A stretch of 36,575 bases of DNA from NCBI GenBank assembly GCA_034659435.1, contig JAYEHJ010000087.1:1-36575 (forward strand), in the 5' to 3' direction. The notes under the pieces are model-generated. The model did no database searches. It saw only the letters and a list, made by a program, of their open reading frames with translations, and was not told the origin of the DNA. A program made the position numbers and the translations under genes. Below are positions 77-31,108 of this stretch, in pieces (position 1 is the first letter of the stretch; each line of letters starts with the position of its first letter). The stretch is from Patescibacteria group bacterium (GTDB lineage: Bacteria > Patescibacteriota > Patescibacteriia > Patescibacteriales > UBA12075).

Positions 77-1225
77 TTAAATGGACTCTGTAATACTATA
101 CATTGGCATTATAATCGCGATCGCGACGCCGCCAACGCCAAAACCCAACACAAGAATTAACAATGGCTCAATAATCGCCGGTAGATTTTCCATAACCTGA
201 TCAACCTCTTCTTCGTAAAATTCAGCTAATTCAACTAAAATATTATCAAGCTCTCCTGTTTCTTCGCCAACCGCAATCATTTGCGCCACAACCGGGGTAA
301 AAAGTTTGGGGTAGGAATCAATCGCTTCGCTTAATTTTCCGCCTTGCTTGATTTTTTGCGCCATATCCAAAAGAGCTTCGCGGTAATGAAGATTGCCCAG
401 CACATTGGCGGTAATTTGAAAGGTTTTAATTATCATAATATCGGTTTTTAAAAGGGAGCTTATGTTGCGGGCAAAACGAGCTAAATTAATTTTTTTGATT
501 ATCGTGGAAAAAATCGGCATTTTAAGAAGCATTGCTTGAAATATATATTTTCCTTTATAAGTTTTAATCGTTTTTATAAAAGATATGACAACAATAATAA
601 AAATTGCCAAAGAAAGCAATCCATTATTGACAATCGCGTCGCTGACTCCGATTAAAATTTTAGTCGGCAAAGGCAGTTCAGTGTCCATTTCGGCAAACAT
701 ATCGGTAATTTTAGGTATTATAAAAACAATCATGAACGTTCCAATGCCAAACATGGCTATAAGTATTATCACCGGATATGTAAGCGCGCCTTTGATTTTT
801 GATCTTAGCTTGTGGTCTTTTTTCATTTGCAGATACAATTGGCTTAACACATCTTCAAGTTTTCCTGAAAGTTCTCCGGCTTCCACCATGCTGACAAACA
901 GCTCGCCGAATATTTTTTTATGAGGCGTTAAAGCTTCTGTGAAGCTTTTTCCTTTTTCAACTTGTTCTCCTGTGTCAGTTAAAATTTTTTTAAAATATTT
1001 ATTTTCAGTTTGCTTGGCAAGAGTTTTTAGCGCTATTGACAATGATATGCCGGATTTAAGCATCACCCCCAAATGCTGCACAAAAAATAGCTTTTCTTTT
1101 AACGGCACGCACGAAAGAGTTAGTAAAAAGCCGTTAATTTTTTCAATAATACTTTTATTTTCCTCAATATCGCCAGTGCTGTTTTCCGTATTTTTAATTT
1201 GTTTTTTAGAAAAATTTACAGGCAT
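77..1225 (-). CDS. pilC: type IV pilus / type II secretion platform protein (GspF/PilC family)
   Basis: 382-aa ORF with ATG at 1225. Two tandem T2SS-F-like halves, each a helical cytoplasmic segment followed by TM helices. Lies 44 nt downstream of a GspE-type ATPase gene on the same strand. Confidence 0.85.
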   Translation of the reverse strand: MPVNFSKKQIKNTENSTGDIEENKSIIEKINGFLLTLSCVPLKEKLFFVQHLGVMLKSGISLSIALKTLAKQTENKYFKKILTDTGEQVEKGKSFTEALTPHKKIFGELFVSMVEAGELSGKLEDVLSQLYLQMKKDHKLRSKIKGALTYPVIILIAMFGIGTFMIVFIIPKITDMFAEMDTELPLPTKILIGVSDAIVNNGLLSLAIFIIVVISFIKTIKTYKGKYIFQAMLLKMPIFSTIIKKINLARFARNISSLLKTDIMIIKTFQITANVLGNLHYREALLDMAQKIKQGGKLSEAIDSYPKLFTPVVAQMIAVGEETGELDNILVELAEFYEEEVDQVMENLPAIIEPLLILVLGFGVGGVAIAIIMPMYSITESI

Positions 1226-4817: not shown

Positions 4818-4874
4818 TGAAAAATAAAAAACATGCTAATTTAATAATTTGTATATTAGTAAAATTCGTAGTAT

Positions 4875-6536
4875 ATGGTAAACCCAAATTTAAGCAGAAT
4901 ATCTGAAAAAAAATTAACGCCTACGATTAACGCTAAGCGTCTTTTTCAGATTATATATCGCGAACAATCAAAAGCGGAAGCAAAAGAAGACGAAGTTCCA
5001 AAAATAAATGTTTCGGAATTAATCTCCAAGATGTCTTTTTATTATGAAAAAATTAGGAACACGGTTGATTATAAAGAAGAACACCTTCTTAGAAAAAATG
5101 CGATTGAAAGAATTATTAAAAGAAAAGTCGTAATTGAAGGCACGATATCGGTAAAAGGTGTAAATAGCGTTGAAATAGCAAGACATCTGTTAACAGAATT
5201 AATCAGAGCGGCGTATTTGCCCAATAATTCAATTCCGGAAACTAAAATTGGCGAGGTAGCGAAAACTATTAAAAAATATTTAGATTTAAAAAGAGCGATT
5301 GCAAAAGTAAAAGGCTGGGGATTATCTGAAAAAAATGATTTGAATAATTGGATAATAGCTTTAGCGGCAAGCGATATTGAAGAGCGCTTAGGCTTAAGCA
5401 AAATTAACAGAACCGTGGTTGATTATATAAATAAAATTTTGCTTAAAAATATTGAATTGCCTGGTGATTCCGAATATGAGACAGATAAAGAAATTCAAAT
5501 ATTTTTAGGGATACATAGGTGTTACTTAAAATTTGACCGCGATATGATGAGCTTTATACTTTTTAAATATTATGTAGCCGATTGGAAAAATCCGAATGCG
5601 GAAAAAATTGAAGAGGTTGCCGCAAAAATAGTTTTTTTGCGAAAAGCGATTAACAAACAGCTTGAACACCCGATGGTTAAACAGCTTAATCGGATTATTA
5701 GCCGTTATACTGTTTTTTTTGCGATTTTAACCGACGTAATTAAAGAAAATCCAGTAGCGGTTTATGAAAGTATCAAGAAGGATCCAAAGGTTTTTCCGCG
5801 TGAAATAAAAAAAGCCTGCGGCAAAAAATACAAAGAGTCTTCCAAAAAATTGTGGCGAGCCGCTGTCAGAAGCATAATTTATATTTTTATTACAAAATCG
5901 GTTTTTGCCGTATTATTAGAGCTTCCGGCGACAAAATGGTTTGGCGAGGAGCTTAATGTTATTTCGTTGATTATTAATATTAGTTTTCCGGCAGTTCTTT
6001 TGTTTTTTATTGTTTTATTCACTAAAATGCCGTCTGAAGATAATAGTAATAAGATTAAAGAAGGAATTGAAGAAGTCGTTTTTGAAGAGCATGAACGCAA
6101 AGAGCCGTTTCGCTTGCGCAAGCCGGCGCGCCGCAGCAAAAGCATGGGGCTTATTTTCGGAATTTTATATTTCATAACTTTCTTTTTTTCATTTGGAGCT
6201 GTTATTTGGGCATTAAATAAAATTAATTTTACATGGGTAAGCATTGTAATTTTTTTATTTTTCTTAACGTTTGTCAGTTTTTTTAGCATTCGTATCCGCA
6301 AGAACGCCCGAGATATGATTATTATTCCGCCGCGGGAAAATATTTTAAGTTTTATCAGCGACTTTTTTTATATTCCGATTGTTGCCGTCGGCAAGTGGAT
6401 GAGCGAAAAATTTTCTCAAGTAAATGTTTTTGTGTTTATCCTTGATTTTATAATAGAAGCTCCGTTTAAAATTTTTGTTGAAATCGCTGAAGAGTGGACA
6501 AGGTATGTGCGTGAAAGGAAGGAGGATATTGTGTAA
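4875..6536 (+). CDS. hypothetical membrane protein: about 330-aa soluble helical N-domain plus about 4 C-terminal TM helices
   Basis: 553-aa uninterrupted ORF. TM segments from about residue 330. No family recognised by eye. Confidence 0.7.
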   Translation: MVNPNLSRISEKKLTPTINAKRLFQIIYREQSKAEAKEDEVPKINVSELISKMSFYYEKIRNTVDYKEEHLLRKNAIERIIKRKVVIEGTISVKGVNSVEIARHLLTELIRAAYLPNNSIPETKIGEVAKTIKKYLDLKRAIAKVKGWGLSEKNDLNNWIIALAASDIEERLGLSKINRTVVDYINKILLKNIELPGDSEYETDKEIQIFLGIHRCYLKFDRDMMSFILFKYYVADWKNPNAEKIEEVAAKIVFLRKAINKQLEHPMVKQLNRIISRYTVFFAILTDVIKENPVAVYESIKKDPKVFPREIKKACGKKYKESSKKLWRAAVRSIIYIFITKSVFAVLLELPATKWFGEELNVISLIINISFPAVLLFFIVLFTKMPSEDNSNKIKEGIEEVVFEEHERKEPFRLRKPARRSKSMGLIFGILYFITFFFSFGAVIWALNKINFTWVSIVIFLFFLTFVSFFSIRIRKNARDMIIIPPRENILSFISDFFYIPIVAVGKWMSEKFSQVNVFVFILDFIIEAPFKIFVEIAEEWTRYVRERKEDIV

Positions 6537-6612
6537 TTTATGATTTATGATTTTGAATTTATGATTTTAATGTATTATAAATTTTTTAAATCTGAAATCA
6601 TAAATCATAAAT
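6536..6612 (+). terminator. AT-rich 18-bp hairpin (atttatgatttatgattt / aaatcataaatcataaat)
   Basis: Perfect 18-bp complementarity between 6536-6553 and 6595-6612, starting at the last base of the 553-aa ORF stop codon (6534-6536). Terminator function is inferred. Confidence 0.4.
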
Positions 6613-6625
6613 CTAAAATTATAAC

Positions 6626-7384
6626 ATGCTATATATAGTTGCCACGCCAATCGGTAATCTGGAAGATATATCACTTCGCGCGTTAAGAATTCTCGGCGAA
6701 GTTGATTTTGTTTTATGCGAAGATACGCGGGTGACCAAAAAGCTGTTAGAGTATTATAAAGTTAAAACCAAAACAATTTCTTATCATCAGCATTCGGGTA
6801 TTAAAAAACAGGATTATCTTTTGGGGTTATTGGAAGCAGGTAAAGATTTGGCGCTGGTGTCTGATGCCGGTACGCCTGGTATATCAGATCCCGGCGGCAA
6901 ACTGGTATCTGCTGTGATTGAAAAATTTGGTGAATCAATTAAAATTGAATCTGTTCCTGGTCCTTCCGCGGTTACAGCCGCGTTATCAATATCAGGAATA
7001 GCAACTGATAAATTCATATTTTTAGGATTTCCTCCGCATAAGAAGGGACGACAGAAATTTTTGCAAAAAATAGTTGACAGTATTTTTCCGGTTGTAATTT
7101 ATGAGTCAAAACATCGGATACTTAAATTTTTGGAAGAGTTAAAAAAGATAAATCAGAATATTGTTAAGCATAATCAAGAAATTGATGAGCAAAAAAGCAA
7201 GGACATAATCAGACCTAAAAATTTACCTAGAAAAATAAATTTAATTACATCAGTCGTCGTTTGCCGTGAGTTGTCAAAAATGCACGAAACGGTTTATCGC
7301 GGAGAGCTTTCTGATGTTATTGATAAAATTAAAAATAGCCATAATGATCAAAGAGGGGAGTTTGTGGTTATAGTTGGGAGATAA
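6626..7384 (+). CDS. rsmI: 16S rRNA (cytidine1402-2'-O)-methyltransferase
   Basis: N-terminus LYIVATPIGNLEDISLRALRIL...CEDTR and SDAGTPGISDPG are the tetrapyrrole-methylase-fold RsmI signatures. Confidence 0.9.
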   Translation: MLYIVATPIGNLEDISLRALRILGEVDFVLCEDTRVTKKLLEYYKVKTKTISYHQHSGIKKQDYLLGLLEAGKDLALVSDAGTPGISDPGGKLVSAVIEKFGESIKIESVPGPSAVTAALSISGIATDKFIFLGFPPHKKGRQKFLQKIVDSIFPVVIYESKHRILKFLEELKKINQNIVKHNQEIDEQKSKDIIRPKNLPRKINLITSVVVCRELSKMHETVYRGELSDVIDKIKNSHNDQRGEFVVIVGR

Positions 7385-8858: not shown

Positions 8859-8920
8859 ATTTTACTTTATAACTCATCTTAGGCATTTACGCAACACGCC
8901 AATTAATTTAACCTTATTTT

Positions 8921-9170
8921 CTGTCATTCCCGACACACCTTAGCCCCCGCAGGGAATTATTATTAAATGATCGGGAATCTCTTTAAAAGAAAAAGATTTA
9001 AAATAATATTCAAAGATAAAAAAAGAATACATCTATTAAACAATTAAGATAAATACAATTTAAATTTTTATAAACGGATATTTCATAATTAATATTTAGA
9101 TGCTTTTTACGAGATCTCCGATCATTTAATATAACTTCCCTGCGGGGCAAGGAGTGTCGGAGATGACAGA
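8921..9170. repeat. family-A inverted doublet of about 60-nt GC-rich hairpin units (REPIN/MITE-like)
   Basis: The left unit tgtcattcccgacacacc...aaatgatcgggaatctc and the right unit gagatctccgatcattt...gtgtcggagatgaca are inverted copies (roughly 85-90 percent identical by eye) around an AT-rich centre of about 130 nt. Confidence 0.8.
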
Positions 9171-13160: not shown

Positions 13161-13224
13161 AATTATTCTATGCGCGGGCGATTATTAGCTTAATCTCCTG
13201 CAGATAAAATAATTTTTGAATAAT

Positions 13225-13290
13225 GAATTGAGAATAAAGAATTAAGAAGCTGTTACGAAATCTTGATTCTTTATTCTTAATTCTTGATTC
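13225..13290 (+). repeat. related imperfect hairpin of about 24 bp at the atpE-atpF junction
   Basis: gaattgagaataaagaattaagaa / ttctttattcttaattcttgattc use the same aagaat/attctt heptamer vocabulary as 14204-14255. Confidence 0.6.
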
Positions 13291-13296
13291 TTTTTT

Positions 13297-13788
13297 ATGG
13301 AAAATTTAATTGAAACATTTCATATTGATATAAAATTGCTAATAGCGCAAGTGATTAATTTTGCTATTGTTTTTAGTGTTTTGTATTTTTTCGCGCTGAA
13401 GCCGTTGCTTAAAGTTATGTGTGATAGAACCAAAAAAATTGAAAAAAGCATTGATGACGCGCAAAAAATAGAAGAAAAATTAAGCAAGACAGACGAAGAA
13501 TACAATAAGGCAATCAGCAATGCGAAAAAAAAAGCAAATATTATTATGGAAAAGGCAAATGTTATGGCAGAAAAAAAAAGGCAGGATTTAATAAAAAAAG
13601 CAAAAGACGAAATAGGACAGATTATTAATAAAGAAAAAGAGCAAATGCAGATTGAAAAAGCTAGAACGTTAAAAGAAATAAAAAAAGAAACAGCAGATTT
13701 AGTTGTTGCTTCTTTGGAAAAGATTTTGGAAAAAAAAATGGATAGCAAGAAAGACGGAGAATTAATTAAGAAGATGGTTAAAAAATAG
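13297..13788 (+). CDS. atpF: F0F1 ATP synthase subunit b
   Basis: One N-terminal TM helix followed by a long charged helix. Operon position. Confidence 0.85.
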   Translation: MENLIETFHIDIKLLIAQVINFAIVFSVLYFFALKPLLKVMCDRTKKIEKSIDDAQKIEEKLSKTDEEYNKAISNAKKKANIIMEKANVMAEKKRQDLIKKAKDEIGQIINKEKEQMQIEKARTLKEIKKETADLVVASLEKILEKKMDSKKDGELIKKMVKK

Positions 13789-13801: not shown

Positions 13802-14203
13802 ATGAAGATTACCGCAAAACAATACGCTGAAAGTTTATACGAAGCCGTTCAAAATAGGAATGACAGCCAGATTAAAGTTGTAATAAATAATTTTTTTAGT
13901 ATTTTAGTTCAAAATAATGATATTGCGAAAGCCGAAGATGTTGTTGTTGAATTTGAAAAAATATGGAATATAGAGCAGGGAATTATTAAAGCTGAAGCTA
14001 TGAGTGCGCGCGAGCTTGATAAAAACACTGTTAAATTATTAAATAGTCATATTGTTGAATTGTCTAGCGCTAAAAAAGTTATTTTAGATCAAAAAATAAA
14101 TAAAAATATTTTAGGAGGAACGGTCATTAAATATGAAGATAAAATTTTAGATGGGAGTTTGAGGATGAGGTTAAGTGAGTTAAAAAGCGAGATGGTAAAA
14201 TAA
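13802..14203 (+). CDS. atpH: F0F1 ATP synthase subunit delta (short, 133 aa)
   Basis: OSCP-like ends (YAESLYEA at the N-terminus, GGTVIKYEDKILDGSLRMRL at the C-terminus). Operon position. About 45 aa shorter than typical delta. Confidence 0.8.
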   Translation: MKITAKQYAESLYEAVQNRNDSQIKVVINNFFSILVQNNDIAKAEDVVVEFEKIWNIEQGIIKAEAMSARELDKNTVKLLNSHIVELSSAKKVILDQKINKNILGGTVIKYEDKILDGSLRMRLSELKSEMVK

Positions 14204-14255
14204 GAATTAAGAATAAAGAATTAAGAATAAAATCTTAATTCTTTATTCTTAATTC
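14204..14255 (+). repeat. perfect 23-bp AT-rich hairpin at the atpH-atpA junction
   Basis: gaattaagaataaagaattaaga (14204-26) / tcttaattctttattcttaattc (14233-55), with loop ataaaa. Confidence 0.8.
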
Positions 14256-14271
14256 GTAATTCAATATTATT

Positions 14272-20442: not shown

Positions 20443-20670
20443 TCTTCTACGAATTACGAATTTTACGAATACACAAATACTCTATAAACGTTTAAATATA
20501 ATTTTCATATATTTACGGCAACACAAAGCATATTTAAACATGTAATATGAGTTATCAATAAAATATCATATTTTATTGCGTAATGCAAGAATATTTATTA
20601 TAATTAAAATAGCTCTTTAAATGATTTTGTGTGTAATAAATATTATATTACGATTTTCGCCTCTTTTTTT

Positions 20671-20880
20671 TGTCATCTCCGACACACATTGCCCCGCAGG
20701 GAAATTATATTAAATGATCGGAGATCTCGTAAAAATCAACGAACATAAAAAATAAAAAAATATTTTAAAAAAATATTATATTAACAACCGTTATTTTAAA
20801 AAATAATTTAGATGCTTTTAAAGAGATTCCCGATCATTTAATATAATTTCCCTGCGGGGCAATGTGTGTCGGGAATGACA
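20671..20880. repeat. family-A inverted doublet, second copy
   Basis: tgtcatctccgacacacattgccccgcaggg...gatcggagatctc and agagattcccgatcattt...ccctgcggggcaatgtgtgtcgggaatgaca. The right-internal segment tttagatgctttt is shared with the 9095 copy. Confidence 0.8.
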
Positions 20881-20950
20881 AGGATGGTGCTTGTTAAAAT
20901 AATAAAAATATAATATTTATTACCCACAGAATTATTGAGCCATTAAAATT

Positions 20951-22208: not shown

Positions 22209-22514
22209 ATGACTAAAATAATCAAGGCTACTTCAAAAGGGCAAATTACTATTCCTGCTGAATGGAGGCGTGAATTTAAAACTGATCAATTTATAATAAT
22301 CCGCCAAAAAGACGGGATAAAAATAAAACCGATTAATATAAATAAAATTATGGAAGAAGAAAAAAACAGATTAGCCAGAATGAAAGAATATGAAAAATTT
22401 AAAAAAAATCGCCCTAAAAATGAAACAGTAATTTTTGACGCAATCAGGGATAATAATGGAGAAGGCATATCAGCAGACGATTTTATAAAAATGATAGAAG
22501 AAATAGATGGATAA
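22209..22514 (+). CDS. AbrB/SpoVT-domain antitoxin
   Basis: N-terminal SKGQITIPAEWRREF swapped-hairpin motif. Its stop overlaps the toxin start (ATGGATAA). Confidence 0.7.
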   Translation: MTKIIKATSKGQITIPAEWRREFKTDQFIIIRQKDGIKIKPININKIMEEEKNRLARMKEYEKFKKNRPKNETVIFDAIRDNNGEGISADDFIKMIEEIDG

Positions 22515-22752
22515 AATTAAAAAAATTTTAAAAAAAATTTTAAAAATTGAAAGAAAAAATATTTTAAGGCAAATTAAGCTAACACAAGAACGAAAAATTA
22601 ATCCCGCTAAAATAAAAAAAATCAAGGGTTCAAAAAACTTTCGTATTTGCATTGGTAGATTCAGAATTTTGTTTTATTGGAAAAAAGACGGATCAATTGC
22701 CTTAATTGATATGTGTAATCGTGATGAAAATACTTATAAAAACCTAAAATAA
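22507..22752 (+). CDS. RelE/ParE-family type II toxin
   Basis: 81 aa. The segment KGSKNFRICIGRFRILFYWKKDGSIALIDMCNRDENTY matches the RelE/ParE core pattern. Translationally coupled to the upstream antitoxin. Confidence 0.7.
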   Translation: MDKIKKILKKILKIERKNILRQIKLTQERKINPAKIKKIKGSKNFRICIGRFRILFYWKKDGSIALIDMCNRDENTYKNLK

Positions 22753-24317: not shown

Positions 24318-25598
24318 ATGAATGTAAAAATAAAAGCTAAACCAAGCCCCATGAATAATAAAATATTTAAAAAAATAACTAATTTTACAATAATTTTATT
24401 AGTCTTTTTGTTGCTTTCCGGTTCAACAACAGTCGGGCTGGCAGATACAAATGAAGCAAGTTTGCTTAATAGGGAAGTAAAGCGGATTAATGAAGACATT
24501 TCAGATAAAAAAAGTGAAATTAAGCGGATTCAAGAAAAACAAGAGAAATATTCAGCCGCGATTAATGAAAAACAGCGGGAAAAGGCAAGCCTAAGCAATC
24601 AATTGGCGCTTTTAGATAATCGTTTGGCAAAATCCGAACTGGATATTGAGCTTGTTGAGATTGATATTGACCGTGTTAAATTGGAAATCCAAAAAACCGA
24701 TTTGGAAATTGTAAACAAGGACAAGAAAATCGCCAGAGAAAAAAAACAGATTACCGATGTTATTCGCTTAATGCAGAAGCGCGATAATATTAATTCTCTG
24801 GAAATAATGCTTTTAAACAAGTCTTTATCGGAATTTTTAACCCAAGTAAAATATTTAGAAGATATAAACGAAAGTCTGGATAAAAGTTTGGGAAATTTGG
24901 AAAAATTAAAAAGAGAACTGGAAAAAGAGCAAAAAATTTTAACGCGAAAAAGCGAAGATTTGGTTGAAATGAAAAAGGATTTGGAAGAAAAAAAGATTAA
25001 ATTGGCAAGCGAAAAAGAAAATAAAATTCATATTCTTTCGCAAGTCGGACAATCCGAGCGCGAATACCAGCGGCTTCTAGTCAAAGCAAGACAAGAACAG
25101 GAAAATACGGCCTCTGAAATAGCCAGCATGGAAAAACTGGCTCGGGCAAAATTGGCCAAACTTGAAGGAAAAAAACTGGAATTTAATGACAATGGCTTAA
25201 CATGGCCTGTTAAAAAAAATATTATTACCGCCTATTTCCATGACCCTGATTATCCGTTTCGCCATATCTTTGAACATCCAGGAGCGGATATTCGCGCGGC
25301 GCAGGGGAGTACGCTTATGGCGGCCGCTTCAGGATATGTTGCCCGTGTAAGATCAGACAACAGCGCGCGTTACGGCTATATTATGATTATTCATGGCGAT
25401 GGACTATCTACAGTGTATGGCCACATTTCCAAAGCTTATGTTAAAGAAGATGATTACGTGGTTCAGGGACAAAAAATCGCTCTTTCAGGAGGATTGCCCG
25501 GAACTCCGGGAGCAGGTCGCCTGACAACCGGCCCGCATCTTCATTTTGAGGTAAGATTAAACGGAATACCGGTTGACCCTTTGAGTTATTTGCCGTAA
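24318..25598 (+). CDS. M23-family metallopeptidase with N-terminal signal and long coiled coil (EnvC-like)
   Basis: C-terminal GADIRAAQGS...HGDGLSTVYGH...GPHLHFEV (M23 HxxxD/HxH motifs). The ORF is open from 24228, but the gltX terminator hairpin lies inside that extension. ATG 24318 or 24351 (MNNKIFKK followed by a signal peptide) is the likely start. Confidence 0.85.
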   Translation: MNVKIKAKPSPMNNKIFKKITNFTIILLVFLLLSGSTTVGLADTNEASLLNREVKRINEDISDKKSEIKRIQEKQEKYSAAINEKQREKASLSNQLALLDNRLAKSELDIELVEIDIDRVKLEIQKTDLEIVNKDKKIAREKKQITDVIRLMQKRDNINSLEIMLLNKSLSEFLTQVKYLEDINESLDKSLGNLEKLKRELEKEQKILTRKSEDLVEMKKDLEEKKIKLASEKENKIHILSQVGQSEREYQRLLVKARQEQENTASEIASMEKLARAKLAKLEGKKLEFNDNGLTWPVKKNIITAYFHDPDYPFRHIFEHPGADIRAAQGSTLMAAASGYVARVRSDNSARYGYIMIIHGDGLSTVYGHISKAYVKEDDYVVQGQKIALSGGLPGTPGAGRLTTGPHLHFEVRLNGIPVDPLSYLP

Positions 25599-25647
25599 AA
25601 AAACAGGCTCCAAGAGCCTTTTAAAGGCTCTTGGAGCCTGTTTTTTT
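25597..25647. terminator. bidirectional intrinsic terminator between the convergent M23 peptidase and xerC genes
   Basis: Near-perfect palindrome aaaaaaacaggctccaagagcctt / aaggctcttggagcctgttttttt, with an A run on one side and a T run on the other. Confidence 0.8.
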
Positions 25648-25655
25648 ATGCAAAC

Positions 25656-26618
25656 CTACTCTTTCATCTTCCGCCAGCCATGAACTTTTTTGTGAATATC
25701 TTTCAGCTGTTTATTAGTCACATGTGTATAAATTTGCGTAGTGGCAATGTTCTGATGTCCTAAAAATTCCTGCACCATGCGCAAATCAACGCCTTGCGCG
25801 AGCAAGTCCGTTGCAAAAGAATGCCTGAGCGTATGCGGAGTAGATGTTATTGGAAGTCCGCAAATTTTAATATATTTTTTCACAATATTTTCAATGCTCT
25901 TTGTTGTTAAACGGCGCTCCGCGCCGTTTTTTTCAATTCCCGGCTTATAGTTTATAAATAAAGCCTCATCAATATCGTCGCGCTTGTCCAAATATTTTTT
26001 TAAAGCGCTTGCCGCGCGCATAGAAAAATAAACGGTTCTGACTTTTTTTCCTTTGCCGACAACTGACAATTCAAGCTCTCGCGCTATTTTTGGAATTTTA
26101 ATTTGCTCGCGATTCAATGCGACAAGTTCGGCAACCCTAAGTCCGGTTGAAAATAATGTTTCAAGAATAGCCCTGTCCCTTAATCCAATTGTAGTTGATA
26201 GGCAGGGGGAAAGCAAAAGCTTTTCAAGCTGCTCCAGCTTTAAAAATTTTACTTCCCTCTGAGTTTTATCTTTAGCTAATTTAATGGAGGTAGGGGATAG
26301 TGAGTTAATTTTTTTTTTAACAAAAAAATCAAGCAGGCTCCTAAGAGCTATTAAATAATAATTTTGCGTTGATTTTTTAAGAGAGGTTTTTGTCCTCGGA
26401 TCAATGTGTCTGGATAAAAAAATTCTATATTTCAAAATATGCCTGGCATTTAATTTTTCCGGCTTTAATTTATCCAAATTATTATCGCTCAGCCAATTAA
26501 AAAATTTGTTCAAAAAACGAGAGTAATTCTCCTGTGTTTTTGAACTTAATCCTCTTTCAATTTCCAAAAAATCAAGATAGTCAATTAGGTATTCAATTAT
26601 TGGTTTATTTTTAATCAT
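25656..26618 (-). CDS. xerC: tyrosine recombinase, XerC/XerD family
   Basis: Catalytic pattern GLRVAEL (Arg), HTLRHSFAT (HxxR), GHQNIATTQIYTHV (His/Tyr). N-terminal SAM-like core-binding domain. Confidence 0.85.
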   Translation of the reverse strand: MIKNKPIIEYLIDYLDFLEIERGLSSKTQENYSRFLNKFFNWLSDNNLDKLKPEKLNARHILKYRIFLSRHIDPRTKTSLKKSTQNYYLIALRSLLDFFVKKKINSLSPTSIKLAKDKTQREVKFLKLEQLEKLLLSPCLSTTIGLRDRAILETLFSTGLRVAELVALNREQIKIPKIARELELSVVGKGKKVRTVYFSMRAASALKKYLDKRDDIDEALFINYKPGIEKNGAERRLTTKSIENIVKKYIKICGLPITSTPHTLRHSFATDLLAQGVDLRMVQEFLGHQNIATTQIYTHVTNKQLKDIHKKVHGWRKMKE

Positions 26619-30184: not shown

Positions 30185-30301
30185 AAGAGATTCCCGATCA
30201 TTTAATATAATTTCCCTGCGGGGCTATTGTGTGTCGGGAATGACAGAGAGAATAAAGTGTGTCGGGAATGACAAAAAGAAGAAAGTGCGTCGGGAATGAC
30301 A
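30185..30301. repeat. family-A solo unit followed by iterated 17-nt termini
   Basis: aagagattcccgatcatttaatataatttccctgcgggg... then gtgtgtcgggaatgaca at 30229 and 30257 and gtgcgtcgggaatgaca at 30285 (exact 28-nt period). Confidence 0.8.
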
Positions 30302-30325
30302 AAAAAAATAAAAATAAAAATCCCA

Positions 30326-31108
30326 CTAAACAATTTCTTCTAAATCCTTGATCATTAACCCGCTTAATAGTTTTATTAATTTATTAATATCCAAATTTTC
30401 ATACCCGTAAATCATTGCTTCAATATATTCTTGCCGTATTTTAACCGGAATGGAAAAAAGCGGATAATTGTTTTGCAGTAAAACAAAATTCATTAAAAGC
30501 CGTGCTGTTCTTTTATTTCCGTCAAAAAACGGCTGTATTAAAGCTATCGTAAAATGAATAATAATCGCCTTTAAGTATATGTCAATTTTCAAATTATTAA
30601 AATCCGCTAAAAAAACGCTTATTAAATTTTCAATTTCTTGATTTGTTTTTGGCGGTGCATAATTTGTTCCGCCTATTTTTACCCGTCCAGTTCTATATCG
30701 TCCCGGGTTAACCACAGTATCTTTACCAACTCTCCAATGAATATCTTTAATTAAATTTTCAGTTATGCTAATTTTTTGTTTTTGAAAAGCGTTATTTAAA
30801 GTAAATTCCCATGCTTTTTTCTGATTTAATATTTCATTTTCTTCTTTAATCGTATGCCCGCCAATTGTAACACCTGATAATAATGTTTCTGTTTCCGCGT
30901 AAGTATATGTGTTTCCTTCCAGCGCCGTAGTATTATAAACAAAATCAACTTTTTGTGAAAATGCCAGTTTTTTTTGCTCATCTTGATTAAAATTTTGTTG
31001 AAATTTTTTTTGCAATTCCAAAATTCTCCGGCTTATTTTCTTGTCGGTTTTATATTTTATATTTTTTAATATAAAATTTTTGTGTTGTACTATTGCTAAA
31101 TTATTCAT
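30326..31108 (-). CDS. fic: Fic-family protein with N-terminal inhibitory-helix motif and degenerate active site (His to Gln)
   Basis: Fic core reads IQPFFDGNKRTARLL versus consensus HxFx(D/E)GN(G/K)RxxR. TTALEGN matches the (S/T)xxxE(G/N) inhibitory motif. Confidence 0.8.
   Translation of the reverse strand: MNNLAIVQHKNFILKNIKYKTDKKISRRILELQKKFQQNFNQDEQKKLAFSQKVDFVYNTTALEGNTYTYAETETLLSGVTIGGHTIKEENEILNQKKAWEFTLNNAFQKQKISITENLIKDIHWRVGKDTVVNPGRYRTGRVKIGGTNYAPPKTNQEIENLISVFLADFNNLKIDIYLKAIIIHFTIALIQPFFDGNKRTARLLMNFVLLQNNYPLFSIPVKIRQEYIEAMIYGYENLDINKLIKLLSGLMIKDLEEIV

Follow-up and report, generated by a model that had tools for sequence, protein, structure and literature searches.

The 36,575-nt stretch analysed here (contig JAYEHJ010000087.1 of assembly GCA_034659435.1), which we call the window, is ordinary chromosome of a low-GC, Parcubacteria-like bacterium of the candidate phyla radiation (CPR) that originates from a brine metagenome. 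It carries five repeat units of about 60 nt, designated family A, four of which are arranged as two inverted doublets. Our analysis indicates that these units are probably long-loop members of a hairpin class that comprises the Neisseria Transformation Sequence (NTS) and the Ssn-related motifs (SRMs). On the strength of sequence comparisons, they would be candidate single-stranded DNA (ssDNA) sites for an Ssn protein encoded elsewhere in the genome, and would spread as gene-less doublets that resemble miniature inverted-repeat transposable elements (MITEs) and derive from an SRM-ssn-SRM cassette. The Ssn/NTS system itself is already known (2025); what is new in our results is the long-loop form, the gene-less mobile doublets with mixed stem versions, and the occurrence in CPR bacteria.

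Family-A units and their probable membership of the NTS/SRM class

Direct reading of the window places all of the units (5/5) in intergenic DNA, within 1-4 nt of the positions given in the first-pass annotation, an earlier description of this DNA made from its letters alone. Each unit consists of 5'-TGTC, an 8-nt arm, a loop of 35-37 nt, the complementary 8-nt arm and CTC. As that annotation had proposed, the second arm is in every case the perfect complement of the first, 35-37 nt downstream of it (Table 1). The arm pair is ATTCCCGA/TCGGGAAT in three units (the TC version) and ATCTCCGA/TCGGAGAT in two (the CT version), and the annotation's further statement that each of the two doublets joins one TC and one CT unit was also confirmed by direct reading. 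In the window, the terminal pattern TGTCATYYCCGACAC has seven true matches against 0.82 expected by chance, with eight matches reached in 0 of 100 shuffles, and the inner pattern AAATGATCGGRRATCTC has five against 0.43 expected.

Table 1. Positions of the family-A units, the doublets that they form and the adjoining repeats within the window.
Feature	Position	Strand	Composition	Location
U1, TC version	8922-8981	+	TGTC 8922-8925; 5' arm ATTCCCGA 8926-8933; loop 37 nt 8934-8970; 3' arm TCGGGAAT 8971-8978; CTC 8979-8981; pyrimidine tract 8912-8921	
U2, CT version	9111-9168	-	TGTC 9168-9165; 5' arm ATCTCCGA 9164-9157; loop 35 nt; 3' arm TCGGAGAT 9121-9114	
Doublet D1 (U1/U2, inverted)	8922-9168		ends TGTC...GACA outward; AT-rich spacer of 129 nt without open reading frame (ORF)	MetRS stop codon (8858) to CvpA start codon (9215)
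U3, CT version	20671-20728	+	TGTC 20671-20674; 5' arm 20675-20682; loop 35 nt; 3' arm 20718-20725	
U4, TC version	20823-20880	-	TGTC 20880-20877; 5' arm 20876-20869; 3' arm 20833-20826	
Doublet D2 (U3/U4, inverted)	20671-20880		210 nt	between radical-SAM gene and WecG/NUDIX
Extended D2 element	20612-20939		outer inverted repeat 20612-20642 / 20913-20939, GCTCTTTAAATGATTTTGTGTGTAATAAATA / ...CTGTGGGTAATAAATAT	
U5, solo, TC version	30187-30245	-		between Fic gene (stop 30326) and HD-domain hydrolase gene
Two tandem copies of the 5' half	30246-30312	-	11-nt pyrimidine tract + TGTCATTCCCGACRCAC; period 28 nt; half-sites 30259-30273, 30287-30301	

The NTS is a 28-nt sequence, CGTCATTCCCGCGMAVGCGGGAATCYRG, described by Chenal et al. 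2025 (Nat Commun 16:2388, PMC11893778), who also give the degenerate SRM pattern HGTCWY..YYVSBRH-N0-5-WNVSBRG..RNCYNB; the system is documented from Neisseria meningitidis and from many phyla. SsnA, a 94-aa GIY-YIG protein of Neisseria, binds the NTS hairpin as ssDNA only and cuts a few nucleotides upstream of it, on one strand only, while RNA is neither cut nor bound. Cutting depends critically on the three bases that precede the palindrome on its 5' side, and binding on the C that directly follows it on the 3' side. When the palindrome is changed with the hairpin kept, SsnA activity is abolished, and an NTS split over two oligonucleotides is still cleaved (PMC11893778).

The window units read TGTC-ATTCCCGA-[loop]-TCGGGAAT-CTC and present the NTS/SRM determinants, namely the 5' GTC, the ATTCCCG/CGGGAAT arms and the 3' C. 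In terms of the degenerate pattern, the 5' flank HGTCWY, the palindromic arms (YYVSBRH...WNVSBRG) and the C immediately 3' of the palindrome, within RNCYNB, are all found in family-A units, and the SRM trait of occurring in many, nearly all intergenic, copies fits them as well. The likeness includes the (H)GTCAT form of the flank, the directionality of the motif and, in related CPR genomes, small single-domain GIY-YIG genes with the motif on both sides. Family A differs from the published system in its loop of 35-37 nt, compared with 0-5 nt in the published pattern; around Parcubacteria ssn genes the loop measures up to 57 nt. It also differs in consisting of inverted doublets that carry no gene, vary in their presence from one relative to another and mix two or three stem versions, and in its CPR/Patescibacteria host, which is not mentioned in the main text of Chenal et al. 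2025 (PMC11893778).

In Falkowbacteria we identified elements of 120-210 nt whose left end is a long-loop unit and whose right end is a short hairpin, ...ATTCCCGC-CTNC-GCGGGAATGACA. This right end, TGTCATTCCCGCGAAGGCGGGAATCTTG or ...CCAG, is an exact match to the SRM pattern (30 matches) and equals the NTS at 26-27 of 28 positions. The loop sizes among CPR SRMs are 4, 14, 22, 26, 31-37 and 57 nt. A long loop would do no harm, since close covalent linkage of the two half-sites is not required, as the cleavage of the split NTS suggests. Since the published pattern allows loops of 0-5 nt, long-loop sites are missed by it, and SRM counts in AT-rich or uncultured lineages are consequently underestimated. 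In 60 distinct SRMs, positions -10 to -1 relative to TGTC are pyrimidine-rich and nearly G-free (68-97% Y, compared with about 50% further out), and this tract coincides with the region of reported Ssn cutting.

The short Falkowbacteria ends also fit the definition of dRS3, ATTCCC-N8-GGGAAT, and the dRS3 and NIMEs resemble family A in that an ATTCCC...GGGAAT palindrome bounds short intergenic repeats. In Neisseria, dRS3 is the integration site of filamentous prophages. By analogy, the window units could be recombination targets of a site-specific recombinase such as the Xer-like enzyme encoded at 25656-26618, a tyrosine recombinase gene being present in the window. We consider this extremely unlikely, because in the window units 39-41 nt separate ATTCCC from GGGAAT (half-sites about 40 nt apart), which is incompatible with a recombinase core site. 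Their internal sequence is, moreover, unrelated to that of the dRS3 and NIMEs. The recombinase gene adjoins no unit, and in the fetched loci no prophage is inserted at any unit and no link to filamentous prophages was seen.

Some observations concern the wider distribution of SRMs. The loops of several CPR SRM subtypes have a common GAGCGNNAGCG core. At least 120 stretches of viral contigs from IMG/VR (L042-L121) contain a short SRM, TGTCATTCCCGCGNNGGCGGGAATC, and the long-loop family-A pattern was found in none of the IMG/VR viral contigs scanned.

Covariation of the stem

Copies were collected with the loop-anchored pattern CCGCAGGGAANNNNNNTTAAATGATC, which leaves both arms free. Scanning with this pattern gave 14 loci in the genome collection and 12 in the metagenome collection, which come from three metagenome-assembled genomes (MAGs; Parcubacteria RS_13_30 and RS_2_9, and Falkowbacteria UBA12426) and a few metagenome contigs. 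The family is consequently not restricted to this contig; such a restriction, explained by one local duplication, was an outcome that the first-pass annotation had named as speaking against its reading. A profile search followed by de-duplication yielded 25 distinct long-loop units from five CPR genomes or contigs.

In the alignment of these 25 units, 199 of 200 stem cells (99.5%) form standard pairs. Stem positions 3 and 4 are changed on both sides in eight of the units (C-G/U-A, plus A-U/U-A); seven of these eight belong to the CT version, and the remaining one, in locus L016, has a third version, ATATCCGA/TCGGATAT. The other departures in the stem are two U-G wobbles, one G-U wobble and one mismatch. 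Neither the covariation score nor the count of doubly changed cells was reached by any of 500 shuffles, and in a control in which the 3' partner was slid along, pairing fell to 4-60%. The compensatory change that had been read from the five window units is upheld by this larger set, in which the two boxes covary and the alternative of independent variation does not appear. It is important to consider that the number of pairs with a double change (three, compared with 2.0 in shuffles) is not significant, as 40 of 500 shuffles reach three. Few independent covariation events are present because the copies are related, and the CT version may have arisen only once.

Complementarity is kept in no fewer than six versions of the stem: TC, CT, AT, ..CGC/GCG.., ..CTGC/GCAG.. 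and ..CAGG/CCTG... The support becomes broader with the inclusion of further subtypes, since ATTCCCGC/GCGGGAAT, ATTCCTGC/GCAGGAAT, ATTCCAGG/CCTGGAAT and ATCCTGGR/YCCGGGAT are all complementary. Two elements are invariant in the distinct units (25/25), TGTCAT and the C after the palindrome (column 58), and they coincide with the positions to which SsnA mutagenesis assigned a critical part in cleavage and binding (PMC11893778). The pairing and covariation results support the view that the family-A stem is under pairing constraint.

A structured RNA or regulatory element expressed from the intergenic regions (a small RNA, 5'-UTR structure, terminator or attenuator) would also have a covarying stem and exclusively intergenic copies. 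In its favor, D2 is placed with a promoter-like sequence on one side and the start codon of WecG on the other, and a different hairpin occupies the same place in a relative. However, the units occur in both orientations and in inverted pairs, the hairpin is not followed by a T-run, and the insertions lie beside unrelated genes. No Rfam family was matched at gathering thresholds, and a permissive search returned only plant miRNA hairpin models, far below threshold, owing to the long-hairpin shape. SsnA, for its part, does not bind RNA (PMC11893778). An RNA element is, on these grounds, hardly probable. The first-pass annotation had proposed selection on a hairpin in either ssDNA or RNA; the pairing constraint and the single-stranded form stand, and RNA is unlikely to be the form that matters.

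Mobility of the doublets

Locus L011, from RS_13_30, is syntenic with the window at 19.4-27.4 kb, with about 84% nucleotide identity. The D2 site, between the radical-SAM gene and WecG, measures 501 nt in the window and 129 nt, without a doublet, in L011. The latter has a doublet of its own (4871-5082), 94.8% identical to D2, at a non-orthologous site between GluRS and M23 peptidase, immediately downstream of the GluRS stop codon and ahead of the terminator, where the window has none. Because filled and empty sites are reciprocal between both genomes, the doublet behaves as a mobile unit. The comparison of insertion sites that the first-pass annotation had suggested as a check thus shows, for this syntenic relative, that the doublets are mobile. 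In the source brine metagenome the units have a depth of 530-970, compared with 14 for unique flanks (40-70x), and contigs break at units.

These properties invite comparison with a classical MITE, that is, a deletion derivative of an insertion sequence (IS) with a DDE transposase, whose terminal inverted repeats of 60-90 bp (TGTCAT...ATGACA) are bound as double-stranded DNA and whose boxes are protein sites. The long terminal inverted repeats, the small AT-rich non-coding core and the presence/absence polymorphism agree with such an origin, and the tandem extra half-sites at 30257-30312 resemble multi-site transposon ends. With bacterial MITEs such as Correia, RUP, ERIC and Nezha, family A further shares its size of about 210-250 bp, its intergenic location and its long-hairpin fold. 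However, no direct repeats indicative of a target-site duplication were seen at any of seven doublets, which have the pyrimidine tract on one flank and its complement on the other; the intergenic DNA of the window and L011 is too diverged for a target-site duplication to be defined between them. Each end of family A has its own covarying hairpin, and the compensatory changes between inverted boxes within one end suit base pairing better than independent protein sites. In the fetched loci no DDE transposase with these ends, and hence no DDE parent, was found, the gene-bearing TGTC...GACA elements there carrying only ssn. A classical MITE is accordingly improbable as an explanation.

The outer inverted repeat around D2 (20612-20642 / 20913-20939), which the first-pass annotation had not listed, is homologous to a motif that brackets Falkowbacteria SRM doublets. 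This repeat (GGTTCTTTAGAYAATTYTRTGGGTAAAATATT-like, with an extended -10-like TGnGTAAAAT) is found at doublets in two genomes that are about 70% identical (L005, L006, L008, L010 and L014). The idea of a free-standing target palindrome found no support, since the repeat occurs only beside SRM doublets and about 180 kb contained no isolated copy. It seems to belong to a longer form of the element.

ssn genes in related genomes

The ORFs of the fetched loci were searched by phmmer with an approximate GIY-YIG consensus query, which identified two strong matches (E 1e-26 to 1e-27), both confirmed as PF01541. The Ssn family is defined by a single GIY-YIG domain in fewer than 150 aa, a best match to CDD cd10448 and homology to Neisseria SsnA with the catalytic residues Y6, Y17 and E64; the CPR genes were judged by domain, length, homology and catalytic residues. 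The CPR Ssn-like ORFs have 94-102 aa and a single domain, with PF01541 spanning residues 7-83 (E 1e-14 to 1e-16). Compared over their full length with the SsnA orthologue of N. gonorrhoeae, they show identities of 44% (E 1e-28) and 51% (E 2e-32), and the catalytic Y/Y/E residues align. The reference ORF from N. gonorrhoeae was obtained by tblastn of a plasmid collection; it has the Y6/Y17/E64 spacing given in PMC11893778 and lies among seven NTS matches in 1.67 kb. The record in question, L041 (NZ_CP119142.1), is a 2.17-Mb N. gonorrhoeae chromosome filed as a plasmid, and the start of its ssnA orthologue is apparently shifted (ATG in another frame). More than 2000 homologues were found at E <= 1e-10, and Patescibacteria make up most of the best-scoring matches with a source name. 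The CPR Ssn has no relative in the PDB and no specific NCBIfam model.

We found ssn in RS_2_9 (at least three copies), in RS_13_30, which is the closest relative of the window, in Falkowbacteria and in other Parcubacteria. Every context has the same arrangement, SRM(+)-ssn-SRM(-), the TGTC...GACA ends pointing outward. In L016, only 32 nt separate the end of a family-A doublet from the start codon of ssn downstream of it, and a short SRM lies behind the stop codon. In L003 (RS_2_9), the gene lies between inverted long-loop SRMs, TGTCATCCTGGR-[31-33 nt]-YCCGGGATCCA, and in L027 (Falkowbacteria) it has three tandem SRMs upstream and one downstream. Two further copies of RS_2_9 are in L034 and L037, and the one of RS_13_30 is in L040. 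A 769-kb Parcubacteria scaffold (L031) has ssn between pilB and pilC, and a second, divergent paralogue with its own repeat type 3.3 kb away. The cassettes are placed in unrelated contexts, including a type IV pilus cluster, an mreBCD-PBP2 cluster and a mur cluster. SRMs are very abundant in the source brine metagenome, which also has ssn-like fragments, none of them assignable to the genome of the window.

The two ssn paralogues of L031 (8203-16584) are 48% identical and lie in the type IV pilus cluster in the order pilB-ssn-pilC...pilins...ssn...pilM. At 13420-13600, before the second paralogue, there are tandem hairpins of yet another type, TGTCATTGC-GAGCGCCAGCGAA-GCAATCCC, within which the assembly has a gap. 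The linkage may have a functional meaning, or the genes may simply have inserted into the spaces between pilus genes. In Neisseria, natural transformation, which depends on pili, is modulated by Ssn.

The arrangement of hairpins around these genes bears on the parallel with REPINs and MITEs drawn in the first-pass annotation. In a REPIN, two inverted REP hairpins are moved in trans by a RAYT, a Y1 HUH transposase related to IS200/IS605 that is encoded elsewhere. Inverted hairpin doublets that are intergenic, mobile and present in many copies agree with this, as do ssDNA recognition and an enzyme gene in one or few copies flanked by the same hairpins, which family A has in common with REP/REPIN-RAYT and BIMEs; the Ssn paper itself draws the analogy to REPIN/RAYT (PMC11893778). 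The units, however, bear the NTS/SRM signature, a different motif from REP, the genes flanked by SRM-class motifs encode GIY-YIG rather than Y1 HUH proteins, and the sites of the CPR cassettes lie on opposite strands. Elements of the IS200/IS605 and PATE type likewise have sub-terminal hairpins recognised in ssDNA and no target-site duplication, but their ends are not inverted repeats and both cuts are on one strand. A search of the 384 kb of fetched DNA found no RAYT or TnpA-like (Y1) ORF at E < 0.04, a weak test with approximate queries, and no TnpB was found here either. The annotation of the genes confirms that the window contains no transposase gene, as had been stated. The inverted-doublet architecture of the original parallel is retained, and the partner is most likely not a RAYT or IS200/IS605 enzyme, since the units match the NTS/SRM of Ssn; we regard a REPIN system as very unlikely.

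Proposed mechanism and points against it

In the mechanism that we propose for the NTS/SRM reading, the DNA would become single-stranded by natural transformation, replication or repair. The 8-bp stem would then form on the strand reading 5'-TGTC, and Ssn would read the stem together with the GTC directly 5' and the C directly 3' of it. An inverted doublet would offer one cleavable unit per strand, at its outer border. The doublets would be gene-less, MITE-like derivatives of an IS-like SRM-ssn-SRM cassette that move between intergenic sites. The window units would accordingly be cleaved by an Ssn encoded elsewhere in the genome, the spread may be driven by Ssn rather than by host recombination, and a role in limiting the recombination of incoming DNA, as in Neisseria, may be supposed.

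Folding calculations bear on the second step. When a single unit is folded as ssDNA, the 8-bp stem appears in the minimum-energy and in the centroid fold. A whole single-stranded doublet, on the other hand, takes the form of a single long hairpin (-67 and -54 kcal/mol; z-scores of -14 and -10), within which the version dinucleotides are 2x2 bubbles. Since they are only bubbles, the mixing of versions does not by itself favor the unit hairpin, and the argument of the first-pass annotation that the unit hairpin prevails because versions are mixed fails. Homotypic doublets, moreover, exist in Falkowbacteria and L002. Six of the seven long-long doublets are heterotypic, five of them from one doublet family.

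Several points weigh against the NTS/SRM reading. The published SRM pattern, with its loop of N0-5, matches no window unit, the loops being about ten times longer. On its own, a unit forms a weak hairpin (-6.6 to -8.5 kcal/mol, z -1.0 to -2.1), and the long inter-unit hairpin would dominate if the entire doublet were single-stranded. The strong conservation of the loop (GCCCCGCAGGGAA...ATATTAAATGA) is not explained by a model in which the units are Ssn sites. ORF searches found no ssn gene or remnant within the 36.6-kb window. In RS_13_30, the ssn gene is flanked by a different stem subtype, ATCCTGGR/YCCGGGAT; since the sequence of the palindrome matters (PMC11893778) and this subtype differs, any partner enzyme for the ATTCCCGA and ATCTCCGA versions in this lineage is putative.

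Regarding the loop, the 35-37 nt in question (CAC..GCCCCGCAGGGAA..ATATTAAATGA; window 8934-8970 and equivalents) are about 90% conserved, and the housekeeping genes of those genomes are about 70% identical. Within the loop there is a mini-stem of 3 bp (CCC/GGG), in which one pair of L002 has changed from C-G to U-A in a compensated way.

A bolder proposal, which we put forward tentatively and hold to be rather unlikely, is that the SRM-ssn-SRM cassettes and the long-loop doublets represent a new class of hairpin-dependent transposable elements. Their mobiliser would be a GIY-YIG ssDNA nickase of about 95 aa, which would nick each end within the pyrimidine tract on its 5' side, the two nicks falling on opposite strands. 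The non-autonomous MITEs of this class would be the family-A doublets, the half-site arrays such as that at 30257-30312 would be footprints of repeated cut-and-repair, and the conserved 35-nt loop would have a second function.

For the spread of NTS/SRM repeats, the window and its relatives constitute a compact natural case, with comparative evidence of SRM elements moving as units. Small CPR genomes possess several Ssn paralogues, each with its own hairpin subtype. The natural long-loop and stem-swapped variants are substrates for defining Ssn recognition, which is of use for the tools for cutting ssDNA that have been proposed. CPR bacteria are believed to rely on pili for taking up DNA. Given the presence of ssn in the type IV pilus cluster of one Parcubacteria genome, the Ssn/SRM system may shape which incoming DNA these bacteria integrate.

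Half-site arrays and other features of the window

The tandem 5' half-copies beside U5, at 30257-30312, were likewise absent from the first-pass annotation. Each extra TGTCATTCCCGACRCAC half-site is able to pair with the single 3' arm of U5. Similar arrays of 5' half-sites stand next to a complete SRM in L016 (about 930-1090) and in L040 (downstream of 3352), and they carry the pyrimidine tract and TGTCAT(TCCCGAC...), or ...GGAATGACAA on the opposite strand. Such arrays may be the footprint of repeated cutting and repair. Three tandem TGTCATTCCCGAC at 30231-30301 prompted us to consider a Tn7/Mu/IS21-like end with multiple transposase sites; this was ruled out, because the neighbouring genes encode an HD hydrolase, SerRS and an FtsQ-like protein, with no transposition genes among them. 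The Fic/DOC-family gene at 30326-31108 directly adjoins U5, and the segment with the HD gene, the unit and the Fic gene is missing from the SerRS-LysRS interval of L008, the syntenic locus in Falkowbacteria.

The genes of the window include aminoacyl-tRNA synthetases, ATP synthase subunits, an Xer-like recombinase and glycosyltransferases. At 22209-22752, a MazE-like antitoxin ORF overlaps an 81-aa ORF, a possible toxin-antitoxin pair. Positions 1-68 form a perfect palindrome of 68 nt (arms 1-34 / 35-68, without spacer) just beyond the stop codon of the gene at 77-1225 (-); it may be a terminator or, at the end of a contig, an artefact of fold-back during assembly. Around 25580-25665, the gene orientation and the cumulative GC skew switch, and a hairpin with 39-nt arms lies between convergent genes beside the Xer-like recombinase; this may be the replication terminus region. 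Finally, heptamer-like repeats unrelated to family A (runs of TTATGAT/TTACGAA/TTCTTGA) form intergenic inverted pairs around genes and are located at 1224-1263, 6534-6634, 13216-13298, 14198-14270 and 20446-20475.

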